Source: Escherichia coli O127:H6 str. E2348/69 (GTDB lineage: Bacteria; Pseudomonadota; Gammaproteobacteria; Enterobacterales; Enterobacteriaceae). Taken from it: DNA of 64,000 nucleotides. The DNA lies in NCBI RefSeq assembly GCF_000026545.1, contig NC_011601.1; one strand, 5' to 3'. This document shows positions 25,641 through 31,213 of the stretch, in pieces. Both the position numbers and the translations under genes were made by a program. The notes under the pieces were generated by a model. That model was not told the origin of the DNA and did no database searches. It saw nothing but the letters and a program-made list of their open reading frames with translations. Positions within the stretch are counted from its first letter, which is position 1; each line of letters begins with the position of its first letter.

Positions 25641-26584
25641 GCAATCCCCCTGTCTGCAAACTTCCCTTCCCGTACTCCCGTTAACGAATCTTCCCTCAGC
25701 AGGTAATCAAAATCTGCCGTCCAGCCAGTGTCGTTGTCTCCGAAGTAAAACGGCTTGGCCTGATGCACAAACGCCCTGACATACGCTCTGAAACCGTCCA
25801 CGTTTGGCGTTTTCAGTTGCGGGATGATTTTCTTCAGGCGGCGTTTGCGTTTCTCGTTGACCGCAACAGCGTGTGGCAGTCTGTCACCGACTTCGGTGTT
25901 GTAGGCGTTCAGGAAGGATTCGTAGTCGATTCGTTCTGCCTTGCGACGTTCAGGTTTAACCTGCCCATCGCCTCCCCCATTGGGGGGTAGGGGGGTATTA
26001 TTTATATTCTTGTTAATACCTTCTTGTTCATCATGTGCGGTTGTTTGTGCGGCTTCATGTGCGCTTTCATGTGCGGCATGTGCGCTGAAAGCCGCGCCAT
26101 TACTGGCTTCGTCATGTGCGGCATCATGTGCGGTTGTTTGTGCGGCTTCATGTGCGGGTAAATTGTCCATTTTTTGAGCATATTCATGGTAATTTGTGAT
26201 GGTGATCACACGACCTTTTTGCTTCTCTCCATCAATGGAGATCATCCCCTCTTTCACAAAAACCTGAAGCATCCGCTCAACCTGATCACGGCTTGCTGGC
26301 TTGCCATGTCTGTCGCATAACTGAAGACCTAAATCAGCTGCTGTCACAACCAGTTGACCGGGTTGCAGATGCCATTCATGACCTTTGAAATTCGCTTTGT
26401 ATGGCTTTCTGGCGGCATTCAGGAGAAGGTTTTCCCACAGGGTGCGAAGATAAACATCTTTCGCCCATGACTGTTTCAGAATGCTCCGGTACAACGGAAT
26501 GTAACCAGTTTTCTGGTTCTCCATCCTGTTGCTCCTGCGCTCGTGTGCGGCGCTGAAATCGTAGATTTTTGCTGTATTGCTCAT
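25637..26584 (-). CDS. O: Replication initiator O-like protein (iterons within coding sequence)
   Basis: N-terminus [10 protein letters not shown] similar to lambda O; internal repeated [11 protein letters not shown] peptides correspond to DNA iterons. Confidence 0.7.
26029..26158. repeat. Origin-like iteron array (two clusters of ~12-bp repeats, core catgtgcgg) with adjacent AT-rich tract
   Basis: Direct repeats tcatgtgcgg / ttgtttgtgcgg / cttcatgtgcgg seen inside the O gene; AT-rich stretch at ~25997-26027. Confidence 0.6.
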
Positions 26585-26586
26585 AA

Positions 26587-26859
26587 CTACCTGCCTTGAC
26601 GAAAGACCTTAAGAACATTGTTAAACTGACTTACGGATATGTCTTCTTTGAGCAGCTTTTCCAGAAATGCGTTTGGAATGAACGTATATCCCTCCTCTTT
26701 TGGTAGAGACGGAAGCAACGCCCTCGCCTCAGCCTTCAGAAGCTCAGTTCTGGCAACTTTCACAAAAGAGATTTGAGTTCTTTCATCAATGGAACGAAGG
26801 AAGCGCAAACGCTTAGCTTCTTTGTGTGTATCAGGTGGATTAAAGCCTTTGTTTCGCAT
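26587..26859 (-). CDS. Hypothetical protein between cII and O
   Basis: ORF track 26587..27024 trimmed to ATG at 26859 (GAGGT RBS) to avoid overlap with cII. Confidence 0.4.
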   Translation of the reverse strand: MRNKGFNPPDTHKEAKRLRFLRSIDERTQISFVKVARTELLKAEARALLPSLPKEEGYTFIPNAFLEKLLKEDISVSQFNNVLKVFRQGR

Positions 26860-26881
26860 ATAATTACCTCGCTGGATATTG

Positions 26882-27178
26882 TTAAAATTCCATCTGGGTT
26901 TGTTCAGAACGCTCGGTTGCCGCCGGGCGTTTTTTATTGGTGAGTCCATCAAGCGCATACTTAAAAGCCCTACTAATCGGACTGATGTCTGATGCCATTC
27001 CGAAAGCACACAAGACCGAAGCAATAAATCTCCAGTCCGTTCTGCTTATCTTCGATTCATGACAGCCAATCATCTTTGCCAGACCGCGCTGGGTAAGCGT
27101 TGACAGGTTGATGAGTAAATCTGTTTCTGCGCGATCAATTTCTCGCTGTGTTGGCTTGCTGTAACTTGCTTGTGTCAT
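26882..27178 (-). CDS. cII: cII-like transcriptional activator (mosaic: lambda-like C-terminus, divergent N-terminus)
   Basis: C-terminal LTNKKRPAATERSEQxQMEF matches lambda CII; N-terminal ~75 aa diverge. Confidence 0.7.
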   Translation of the reverse strand: MTQASYSKPTQREIDRAETDLLINLSTLTQRGLAKMIGCHESKISRTDWRFIASVLCAFGMASDISPISRAFKYALDGLTNKKRPAATERSEQTQMEF

Positions 27179-27316
27179 TTCTTAATATTTCCAATAGTGA
27201 ATAGTTAGTTGAAAGATATGCGTGGAAACGCATATGGCCTTAGTTGGTCAGATATATTGGGACTCGCTTTGTCAGCGACGTAGGACGAATGTCCATTGTG
27301 AAAATAGCGGTGTTAC

Positions 27317-27526
<210 letters not shown>

Positions 27527-27543
27527 TTAGTACATGCAACCAT

Positions 27544-27607
27544 TATCACCGCCAGAGGTAAAATAGTCAACACGCACGGTGTTAGATATTTATCCCTTGC
27601 GGTGATA
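27544..27607. promoter_or_regulatory. oR1-oR2-oR3 operators with overlapping pR/pRM (lambda-type)
   Basis: tatcaccgccagaggta, caacacgcacggtgtta, tatcccttgcggtgata read directly; match lambda oR sites. Confidence 0.85.
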
Positions 27608-27614
27608 GATTTAA

Positions 27615-28331
<717 letters not shown>

Positions 28332-28338
28332 CACGTAA

Positions 28339-28776
28339 ATGATTAAAGAACGTATTTCTTATATCATTCCGATTGCGATGGATGAAGGCAACCCAGTAAC
28401 TCCAGTTCTTATCTATGAAATGGATAAAGACTCCCATGAAGTGGATCTATCATTTGGCGCTTTTTTTATCGGCCTTAAGGCTACAAAAAAATATTCCATA
28501 GGCATTGAGGTTTTCAATGCTCAAGAAATACCGATACCAATTGACACAAAACTGTACTCCAACCATAAGTTTTTTACGGTAGCAGAAGCCAACGATGGAG
28601 AAACCATCGTATCAACTTCTATGAGAATTAACTTCCCAAGGGTGAAAATTATCAAGCCTGGGATATTCGAAGTTAGAGCATCACTGGTTAATCCTGATAA
28701 AGGCGAAGTAATTGATGTAAAAAGTTCGTTTTTTGACGTGAAGATAACAGGATCAGTTCGCGATGAGTTTAGATAA
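28339..28776 (+). CDS. Hypothetical 145-aa protein occupying the rexA position
   Basis: ORF track; starts 8 nt after cI stop; no recognisable family. Confidence 0.6.
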   Translation: MIKERISYIIPIAMDEGNPVTPVLIYEMDKDSHEVDLSFGAFFIGLKATKKYSIGIEVFNAQEIPIPIDTKLYSNHKFFTVAEANDGETIVSTSMRINFPRVKIIKPGIFEVRASLVNPDKGEVIDVKSSFFDVKITGSVRDEFR

Positions 28777-29134
28777 CAAGGTTGCTCAGCTTCGTCCAAA
28801 TCAAAACATATCTCGCCCAATTGGACACTATTCCACTGATGATGCATACTCACGGCATGGTGGAGGAAACGGCGGAGGTAACATGCTTGAGGCTAGAGTT
28901 GCAAAGCTAGAGTCTGATGTTGAATACATCAAGCGCGATCTCGCTGAAGTAAAGTCAGATATAAAATCTGTAGATTCTCGTCTGTCAGGTATTGAGACAA
29001 GCATTAGCTCAGCAAAAATCACCATCAAGGCATCTGCGGTCGTTGTCAGTTTCGTGTTCGCATTTTGCGCCTACATTTTTGGAAGTTATGTTTCCAAAAT
29101 CCTTGATGCCTTAAACGGACTCGTTCTTAAGTAA
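28763..29134 (+). CDS. Hypothetical 123-aa membrane-anchored coiled-coil protein occupying the rexB position
   Basis: Gly-rich linker GGGNGGGN, predicted coiled coil, C-terminal hydrophobic helix AVVVSFVFAFCAYIFGSYV; start overlaps upstream stop. Confidence 0.6.
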   Translation: MSLDNKVAQLRPNQNISRPIGHYSTDDAYSRHGGGNGGGNMLEARVAKLESDVEYIKRDLAEVKSDIKSVDSRLSGIETSISSAKITIKASAVVVSFVFAFCAYIFGSYVSKILDALNGLVLK

Positions 29135-29140
29135 CACACA

Positions 29141-29168
29141 ACCCGGCCTCAGCGCCGGGTTTTCTTTA
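29141..29168 (+). terminator. Rho-independent terminator (timm-like) ending the cI operon
   Basis: Hairpin cccggcctcagcgccggg followed by TTTTCTTT. Confidence 0.6.
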
Positions 29169-29324
29169 CCTCACGATCCCCTTCACCCAATAACACATAA
29201 CCAATTGTATTTATTTGAAAATTAATAGATACAACTCACTAAACATCGCAATTCAGATCTCTCGATCACCTCCCAAGCCACACACCCCTGCAAAAAAATA
29301 AATCTATATAAAAAACATACAGAT

Positions 29325-29390
29325 AACCATCTGCGGTGATAAATTATCTCTGGCGGTGTTGGCATAAATACCACTGGCGGTGATACTAAA
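29325..29390. promoter_or_regulatory. oL3-oL2-oL1 operators and pL promoter (lambda-type), firing toward N
   Basis: aaccatctgcggtgata, tatctctggcggtgttg, taccactggcggtgata; -35 ttggca and -10 gatact. Confidence 0.8.
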
Positions 29391-29635
29391 CACATCAGCA
29401 GGACGCACTACTCACCAGGGCGGTGAATATACAACGATTCAAGCAAGAATCTACGGCGCTGACAAAGCGCAATAACCAAAGTGAACTTTGGGGTGTGGTG
29501 AAGGGTTCATGGACGGGAATATGTCGCACGTAAAGCGGCGAGGCCTGCGGGACTATTGCCGAATTGAAGTAGGCCGAAACAGGTCGAAATGGGTCTCCCA
29601 CCTACCACACCACCAAAGTTCACCAGGAGGTCTAT

Positions 29636-30019
29636 ATGACACGCAGAACTCAGTTCAAAGGCAATTCACGTTCTCGTCGTCGTGAGCGTTTAAAGGCAAA
29701 GGCATTAGCTAACGGCGTACTGGCCCGCGAAGAAGCAATAAGTTCAGAAGTATTACACCGCCCTACTCTAAGCAGAGCGCAGATTCAGGCTAAAGGTACT
29801 CACGAAACGCCTGAGCGCATAGAAGACGCTAAGCCAATTAAGTTCATGGCACAGGACGTGATCTGGCAACAGAAAGAATACAGACGCAATCTGGAGCGAG
29901 CGGCCATTGTGTACGCGAATGAGTTTGGACATAAGCAACCAGAAACTGGTGTATGTCTTCCAAACGTAGCCATTTACGCGGCAGGATACCGGAAATCAAA
30001 ACAACTGACAGCAAGATGA
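29636..30019 (+). CDS. N: Antiterminator N-like protein (P22 gp24-type, Arg-rich motif)
   Basis: Arg-rich N-terminus NSRSRRRERLKAKA and C-terminus AIYAAGYRKSKQLTAR resemble P22 gene 24 product; first gene after pL. Confidence 0.6.
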   Translation: MTRRTQFKGNSRSRRRERLKAKALANGVLAREEAISSEVLHRPTLSRAQIQAKGTHETPERIEDAKPIKFMAQDVIWQQKEYRRNLERAAIVYANEFGHKQPETGVCLPNVAIYAAGYRKSKQLTAR

Positions 30020-30077
30020 CTTGTGTTGGTCGCCAGAAAATGAAATTAGGCAGCAAACCACTTATTTGAGGTGAGAT

Positions 30078-30548
30078 ATGACAAAATCATGGAGCGTACC
30101 TTTTCCTGAATCAGAAACTGAACATGAGGGAATGCCTGTTTTCTGGAGATTCCAGGCGACAGTTGAAGAAGATGGAATCAAAATATTCGCACTTCAATAT
30201 ATAGCTTTTCATCAGACAGAGCATTATGCATGGTTGGTTCCTGCGCATTGGATTGTTAATTTTAAACCAGCACCAAATCAGTGGTTACAGGAATGGAAAC
30301 AAAAGAGAAATAGATATGCAATTAAGAAAGTAGCAAAAAATGCAGAAAGATCTTTTGCATTCCCAACGAAGAAACTTGCCATTGAAAGTTTATTGCGCCG
30401 AAAGAAATACCATTTAATGAGAATCAAACAAGATTTGGCTGTTGTATCAACTCTTGTTGATGGGATGAAGAATATTGATACATCAACACCAGATATTGAA
30501 TATAACTTTGGACACAACCAAGAAACAGAAAATTGGGTATTCTACTAG
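30078..30548 (+). CDS. Hypothetical 156-aa protein in the ral/sieB slot
   Basis: ORF track; AT-rich by eye; followed by hairpin terminator. Confidence 0.5.
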   Translation: MTKSWSVPFPESETEHEGMPVFWRFQATVEEDGIKIFALQYIAFHQTEHYAWLVPAHWIVNFKPAPNQWLQEWKQKRNRYAIKKVAKNAERSFAFPTKKLAIESLLRRKKYHLMRIKQDLAVVSTLVDGMKNIDTSTPDIEYNFGHNQETENWVFY

Positions 30549-30573
30549 GCCGCATAGTCGGCCTTTATTTTTG
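30548..30573 (+). terminator. Putative rho-independent terminator
   Basis: Hairpin aggccgcatagtcggcct plus T-run. Confidence 0.45.
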
Positions 30574-31079: not shown

Positions 31080-31213
31080 GCACTGTGTATTCATTCCAAC
31101 GAGTGAATACACGGAGCAATGTCGCTCGTAACTAAACAGGAGCCGACTTGTTCTGATTATTGGAAATCTTCTTTGCCCTCCAATGTGAGGGCGATTTTTT
31201 TAACGGAGGATAT

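Follow-up and report, generated by a model that had tools for sequence, protein, structure and literature searches.

The locus studied here lies in a prophage of E. coli E2348/69 (EPEC O127:H6), to whose chromosomes the sequence is 100% identical by megablast. The window, i.e. the whole 64,000-nucleotide (64 kb) stretch of DNA that was analyzed, is reversed relative to the conventional lambda map. Read in this direction, cII and cro precede cI, which is followed by two ORFs at the rexAB position, a terminator, the operators oL3, oL2 and oL1, and pL; a leader of about 242-245 nt then leads to N (Table 1).

Table 1. Features of the immunity and early control region of the prophage, with positions in the window.
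Feature	Position	Strand	Description
cII	26882-27178	minus	
nutR	27264-27309	minus	3′ of cro
nutR boxB	27264-27278	minus	UCGCUGACAAAGCGA; exact core match, pR-transcribed strand
nutR spacer hairpin	27283-27294	minus	GGAC-AUUC-GUCC; predicted fold
nutR boxA-like sequence	27301-27309	minus	CGCTATTTT; 2/9 mismatches to CGCTCTTTA
Right crossover interval	27303-27324	minus	at the stop codon of cro; change from lambda cro to H-19B-type nutR and cII
cro	27317-27517	minus	lambda Cro
cI	27618-28331	plus	lambda CI
Two ORFs at the rexA/rexB position	28339-29134	plus	overlapping; between cI and the immunity terminator
Immunity terminator	29140-29161		
oL3	29325-29341	plus	lambda CI/Cro operator
oL2	29345-29361	plus	lambda CI/Cro operator
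oL1	29369-29385	plus	lambda CI/Cro operator
pL	29359-29387	plus	-35 TTGGCA (29359-29364), 17-nt spacer, -10 GATACT (29382-29387); promoter scan
Leader	29391-29635	plus	
Left crossover interval	29392-29409	plus	CATCAGCAGGACGCACT; 18 bp, -2 to +16
Start of the pL transcript (+1)	29394	plus	
Small 5′ hairpin	29412-29426	plus	TCACC-AGGGC-GGTGA; +19 to +33; predicted
nutL spacer hairpin	29436-29451	plus	GATTC-AAGCAA-GAATC; predicted fold
nutL spacer loop	29441-29446	plus	AAGCAA
nutL boxB	29456-29470	plus	GCGCTGACAAAGCGC; 5-bp stem, GACAA pentaloop
Long N-leader hairpin	29481-29623	plus	143 nt; predicted, MFE -62 kcal/mol, z -4.5
Shine-Dalgarno sequence	29625-29630	plus	AGGAGG
N	29636-30019	plus	127 aa; ATG at 29636
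Relic ORF	30017-30070	plus	MTCVGRQKMKLGSKPLI*; in frame, overlapping the N stop codon (ATGA)
Intrinsic-terminator-like site	30547-30572	plus	pL operon, 3′ of the first post-N ORF; terminator scan
Second intrinsic-terminator-like site	31173-31202	plus	pL operon; terminator scan

The cro and cI genes, oR, oL and pL are 98% identical to lambda (27303-28327, and from 29140 to about 29409-29426). A preliminary description of this DNA had considered pL and its operators to be of the lambda type, and this proved correct: the three oL operators are letter-identical to those of lambda, and the mEp234 record (EF120460) has them annotated at the corresponding positions, while pL is that of lambda save for a few bases. 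Its -35 hexamer is one base off the TTGACA found in lambda, HK97 and mEp234, the change lying just outside oL2, and two further changes relative to lambda pL directly follow the -10 hexamer. Judging from its sequence, TTGGCA moves away from the consensus and could make pL weaker. The position of +1 was deduced from the alignment to lambda, HK97 and mEp234 and from the mEp234 annotation.

The two ORFs located between cI and the immunity terminator belong to predicted families of unknown function. The first (145 aa) is a member of phrog_5893 and the second (123 aa) a member of phrog_6136. The latter also gives weak, sub-threshold XhlA/FlaC-like matches in Pfam and a weak CorA-like match in PADLOC (E 0.004). 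Searches of both ORFs against Pfam, PHROGs and PADLOC returned nothing beyond families of unknown function. They are unrelated to rexAB of lambda, to gp48/gp49 of HK97 and to hicAB (plus one ORF) of mEp234. These cargo ORFs may be lysogen-expressed moron or exclusion genes.

The nut sites of the pL and pR operons

Folding of the leader RNA revealed a stable predicted hairpin (-8.5 kcal/mol, z -3.3) that constitutes a perfect boxB (RNA GCGCUGACAAAGCGC). Aligned to the nutL regions of P22 and phage 21, the leader carries the boxB of P22 (15/15 identities to nutL boxB as annotated in NC_002371), and its likeness to phage 21 ends after 13 nt. The same boxB is found in the nutL sites of H-19B, HK97, mEp234 and 933W-like phages, and the mEp234 record (EF120460) annotates a "putative nutL boxB" at the homologous position. 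Its core, GCTGACAAAGC, occurs exactly twice in the 64 kb, once at nutL and once at nutR, each time on the transcribed strand (GCGCUGACAAAGCGC in nutL and (U)CGCUGACAAAGCG(A) in nutR).

The preliminary description had seen no lambda boxA or boxB in the leader and had concluded that nutL was not recognizable as lambda-type despite the lambda pL and oL. The pattern searches support the first statement. With up to three mismatches allowed, the lambda boxB GCCCTGAARAAGGGC has a single match in the leader, which is the boxB described above, with three mismatches and of another type; such matches number five in the whole window versus 3.0 expected by chance. The lambda pattern GCCCUGAA(G/A)AAGGGC with a GAAGA or GAAAA pentaloop was not found in the leader, its only candidate having a GACAA loop. 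Searches allowing one mismatch found neither boxA CGCTCTTWA in 29391-29635 or in the cro-cII spacer, nor the lambda boxA CGCTCTTA(A) in the leader 5′ of boxB, and the best boxA-like 9-mer 5′ of nutL boxB has 4/9 mismatches to CGCTCTTTA. The second statement holds for a lambda-type site, but "not recognizable" is too strong, since the leader does contain a perfect boxB, only of a different specificity.

Two other searches bear on the recognition of these sites. The sequence CGCACTACT (29404-29412, plus strand), annotated as "putative nutL boxA" in mEp234 and HK106, was rejected as a boxA: it matches CGCTCTTTA at only 5/9 positions, and its first six bases belong to the +1 to +16 segment common with lambda, where they are not boxA. 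A permissive Rfam scan of 26500-30500 (E ≤10) returned three chance miRNA-like matches and none for nut or boxB.

The leader resembles that of lambda in the order of its elements (small hairpin, nut site, long hairpin, Shine-Dalgarno sequence, N). It differs by the lack of boxA, by the stem and loop of boxB, by the presence of a hairpin in the spacer and by an N protein that is unrelated outside its arginine-rich motif (ARM). The site could be regarded as a degenerate lambda-type nut site on which a lambda-like N activity still acts, as both the small 5′ hairpin and the initial 16 nt of the transcript are lambda-like and as boxB equals that of lambda in stem length and loop size. However, boxB differs from that of lambda at 3 of its 15 positions, loop included (GACAA versus GAAGA or GAAAA), boxA is lacking and no lambda-type N is encoded here. 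This reading is already contradicted by the sequence and has next to no probability. The position and stem of the small 5′ hairpin are conserved, in predicted folds, in lambda (CACC-ATGAA-GGTG) and in Salmonella relatives.

Phage 21, whose nutL was obtained via tblastn with its N protein, carries a boxA GCTCTTTA and a 20-nt boxB stem-loop TCTCAACCTAACCGTTGAGA, neither of which is present in the leader of the window. Its other likenesses to the window are the initial 13 nt of the pL transcript and a relic of about 54 nt, of the phage 21 N type, located after N.

Within the nut module, the predicted spacer hairpin keeps an identical stem in related phages but has a different loop (AGAGAT in mEp234, GAATAT in HK97, H-19B and 933W-like phages). 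We equate this hairpin with the "dyad symmetry in the spacer" reported in the nut sites of H-19B. Such a symmetry 5′ of boxB is found at both nut sites of the prophage in predicted folds.

A scan of IMG/VR for the spacer hairpin with any loop retrieved 120 loci; because the search pattern required the spacer stem, stem conservation among these loci is built in. The loop is hypervariable among otherwise near-identical leaders, with 13 variants in the 120 loci: GAATAT occurs 45 times and AGTGAT 37 times, whereas the AAGCAA of the window occurs just three times. It is a long shot that this loop acts as a second specificity determinant, e.g. by tuning NusA binding or by recruiting a partner that would replace the boxA/NusB-NusE contact. 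In that case, closely related prophages would differ in cross-talk or in the efficiency of antitermination even with N and boxB in common.

The cro-cII intergenic region contains a matching GACAA boxB, located 39 nt 3′ of the cro stop codon, and the mEp234 record (EF120460) annotates nutR boxB and a putative nutR boxA at the homologous places. Four probe oligonucleotides designed on nutR of H-19B (Muteeb et al., PMC3526286) match the window exactly over 27238-27321. Among them, RS664, "antisense to nutR boxB of H-19B", covers 27264-27278 exactly, RS663 (spacer) matches at 27279-27300 and RS662 (boxA) at 27298-27321. The nutR of the window is that of H-19B through the boxA-like sequence, the spacer hairpin, boxB and about 40 nt further. 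The action of H-19B N with NusA/NusG on this nutR sequence is experimentally documented (PMC3526286, PMC4499122; R. Sen laboratory); the H-19B nutR forms two hairpins, and its boxA is devoid of protection by N/NusA/NusG (PMC3526286).

The N protein and its pairing with boxB

The N protein of the prophage is 97.6% identical to N of H-19B (124/127) and 98.4% identical to N of HK97 and of mEp234 (125/127). It matches the Pfam family PF25694 (N_peptide; 57.5 bits versus a cut-off of 27.9, E 2.1e-15) and belongs to phrog_271, "anti-termination protein N-like". Its arginine-rich motif spans residues ~9-26 (GNSRSRRRERLKAKALAN). N shows 24% global identity to lambda N, whose ARM MDAQTRRRERRAEKQAQW is not matched.

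The preliminary description had called N P22 gp24-like. This is appropriate for the ARM and the C-terminal ~17 residues, where the likeness is concentrated, but not for the whole protein, since global identity to gp24 is 29% versus the 97.6-98.4% found with H-19B and HK97. The likeness raises the question of a genuine P22-type nut region, with N and nutL orthologous to gene 24 and nutL of P22, and with a boxA and a dependence on NusB/NusE. Besides the identical nutL boxB, P22 has in common with the window a similar ARM (GNSRSRRRERLK in N, GNAKTRRHERRRK in gp24), the C-terminal 17 residues of N and membership in PF25694, and the P22-like Salmonella phages SPN9CC and g341c have the nut-module scaffold at 81-87% identity. 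However, N is 27 residues longer than gp24. Furthermore, P22 has a canonical boxA (CGCTCTTTA) about 10 nt 5′ of boxB and no hairpin in its spacer, and the window is the opposite on both points. The nut module (from +1 to 5 nt after boxB) is only 64% identical to that of P22 versus 95% for H-19B, and the nutR boxB of P22, CCGCCGACAACGCGG, is unlike that of the window. We therefore consider a P22-type region unlikely, the donor being of the H-19B/HK97 type rather than P22 itself, with boxB sequence, ARM pattern and N C-terminus common to both.

Among the IMG/VR loci retrieved with the spacer hairpin, the class of boxB and the class of N ARM co-occur without exception where both are assignable. 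Three pairs were found: boxB GCGCUGACAAAGCGC (GACAA) with ARM GNSRSRRRERLK (57 loci), boxB NGGCUGAAAAGCCN (GAAA) with ARM GSAAGRRRERRA (40 loci) and boxB GCUCCGUCAACGAGC (CGUCAAC) with ARM GTSRARRRERLK (4 loci); since the loci were picked by their spacer stem and include many near-identical prophages, these figures count sequences and not independent events. Most loci of the GACAA class with enough flanking sequence (49/51) have a second GACAA boxB no more than 6 kb away on the other strand, i.e. at nutR. In the GAAA class, the closing pair of the boxB stem changes in a compensatory manner (C-G, A-U, U-A). In the prophage studied here, the RNA-binding peptide has been inherited together with its two RNA targets.

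At the DNA level, the relic ORF that overlaps the stop codon of N is near-identical to a piece of phage 21 made up of the terminal ~51 nt of N and the ribosome-binding region behind it. From its sequence, it qualifies as a recombination scar that marks the distal end of the N module. It is also present in HK97, whose match extends to position 30060 of the window.

The long hairpin of the N leader

The 3′ part of the leader is predicted to fold into a long hairpin that ends 2 nt before AGGAGG. Its basal stem pairs 29481-29499 with 29604-29623, and the sequences of this stem, CTTTGGGGTGTG (CUUUGGGGUGUG) and CACACCACCAAAG, are common to the window and lambda. We take this hairpin to be the counterpart of the RNase III-processed structure of the lambda N leader; it would then modulate N translation and the repression that N exerts from NutL. 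By analogy with lambda, it may also be processed by RNase III; its interior is not homologous to that of lambda. A two-arm alignment of 35 distinct sequences, with lambda, phi80 and Louie among them, revealed that 98.3% of cells are paired in the basal stem and that 11 of its 19 pairs have changes on both sides, versus 39-44% of cells paired in controls with slid partners. These compensatory changes argue for selection on the stem. In lambda, cleavage by RNase III with an effect on N translation, N autoregulation via NutL and a "highly structured" leader have been reported (PMC5725501, citing Wilson et al. 1997 and 2002).

The preservation of this stem bears on whether the region is still functional. 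In a decayed prophage remnant, nutL would be non-functional or absent and the leader would be divergent spacer DNA left by recombination. The fact that the nut site was not recognized in the preliminary description, the lack of boxA, the off-consensus -35 of pL and the relic gene fragment directly after N would all be expected from such decay. However, N is an intact ORF that is nearly the same as in the viable phages HK97, mEp234 and 933W, the leader is 97-98% identical to theirs, and both nut sites have a perfect boxB. Moreover, the compensatory evolution of the long stem argues for selection, and the post-N relic is not particular to this prophage since HK97 has it too. Decay is thus a highly improbable explanation.

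The interior of the long hairpin is 90-94% identical to those of phi80, PA2 and Louie, and unlike the interiors of H-19B and lambda. This type of interior is located behind a lambda nutL in Louie and is associated with unrelated N or nut regions in phi80 and PA2. Another type is found in H-19B, BP-4795 and Oslo, and further types occur in lambda and in P22/S135. H-19B has nutL and N of the same kind as the window, yet a different interior. Judging from these sequences, the interior of the hairpin behaves as an independently exchangeable module.

In GenBank, N of BP-4795 (CDS 842-1291, 149 aa) starts 22 codons 5′ of the conserved MTRRT, inside the long leader hairpin; this start codon is probably mis-annotated.

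Mosaic junctions, related phages and proposed function

A 250-nt query covering the leader is 97-98% identical to the leaders of HK97, mEp234, HK106, PhiR5_2 and dozens of Stx1 and Stx2 phages including 933W. The identity of the nut module is 95% with H-19B and 94% with HK97, versus 64% with lambda and 55% with phage 21, and its differences from H-19B and HK97 are confined to the spacer loop or to a 1-nt indel. In H-19B, a Stx1 phage whose N/nut system was described by Neely and Friedman (1998, 2000), nutL is the same as in the window save for four bases of the spacer loop. In contrast, cI, cro and the operators of H-19B are unrelated to the lambda ones of the window, and its hairpin interior is of the H-19B/BP-4795 type whereas that of the window is of the phi80/HK97/933W-like type.

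Relative to the start of the pL transcript, sequence identity to lambda is unbroken up to +16, and identity to H-19B-type phages extends from -2 onward. The overlap (Table 1) is common to lambda and to H-19B-type phages, and therefore delimits the interval in which the crossover occurred. The left junction is thus located 5′ of nutL and not between nutL and N. ATCAGCAGGACGC, the 13 nt with which the pL transcript opens, is also present in P22 and phage 21, and is therefore a general linker for module exchange. On the other side, homology to lambda (27303-28327) and homology to H-19B (26886-27324) overlap at the cro stop codon. These two flanking junctions indicate that N was exchanged along with both of its nut sites, on either side of an immunity core of the lambda type.

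These results clarify what had been proposed in the preliminary description. A swap of antitermination specificity relative to the immunity region had been suggested, and this is what we observed: immunity is 98% lambda, whereas the N protein and both nut sites belong to the H-19B/HK97/933W type. A breakpoint had been placed between pL and N; the junction does exist, and its position can now be refined to the immediate vicinity of pL. That interpretation was therefore essentially right, nutL being an ordinary nut site of the H-19B/HK97/933W type.

Taken as a whole, these data lead us to regard the leader, with a probability of about 0.9, as the pL-proximal control region of an N module of the H-19B/HK97/933W type placed on a lambda immunity core. 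RNA polymerase would start at the lambda-type pL under the control of lambda CI and Cro, and would transcribe the nut site at +43 to +77, first the spacer hairpin and then the GACAA boxB. The ARM of the resident N would bind the boxB of nutL, and the complex of N and nut RNA with NusA (and NusG) would remain tethered to the elongating polymerase, which would allow read-through of the tL terminators. The two intrinsic-terminator-like sites of the pL operon would be such terminators; the HK97 record annotates a putative terminator at the place that matches the first one, which is presumed to be a target of N antitermination. The resident N would also act on the matching nutR. For N binding, terminator read-through and Nus factor usage in this prophage, we infer this scheme from the sequence.

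Under this scheme, nutL would function without a usable boxA, unlike nutL of lambda and P22. Neely and Friedman reportedly found in 2000 that N of H-19B depends on NusA, whereas NusB and S10 are not required and BOXA is dispensable. The lack of a usable boxA also fits the "reduced requirement for host factors" published for the N protein of H-19B (PMID 11123680).

The prophage of E2348/69 thus carries a coherent H-19B-type set of N, nutL and nutR under the control of a lambda repressor. It follows that the prophage should be immune to lambda-immunity phages and should not be served by lambda N. It provides a textbook case of modular exchange at short conserved linkers, here the start of the pL transcript (13-16 nt) and the stop codon of cro. 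The mosaic of lambda immunity and H-19B-type N is already known from HK97 (AF069529), mEp234 (EF120460, in which nutL is annotated) and HK106 (EF120461), where the lambda cro-cI-oL/pL region is joined at the same point to nutL, the long hairpin and N. The window is 97% identical to this arrangement over 29144-30556 and 26886-28331, and differs from it in the cargo between cI and the terminator, in the spacer loop and in the -35 hexamer of pL. The main value of this analysis is therefore correct annotation, with little surprise for specialists.

Among 5426 complete E. coli genomes, 96 match a query that spans the left junction (29250-29640) with at least 80% coverage, and 934 match it partially. 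An additional patch of lambda sequence lies at the end of cII: its last ~59 nt (26886-26944, minus strand) are 97% identical to lambda cII (…NKKRPAATERSEQ.QMEF), the rest of the gene being mostly of the H-19B/HK97 type, and this 3′ end looks like a further short conserved linker or junction.
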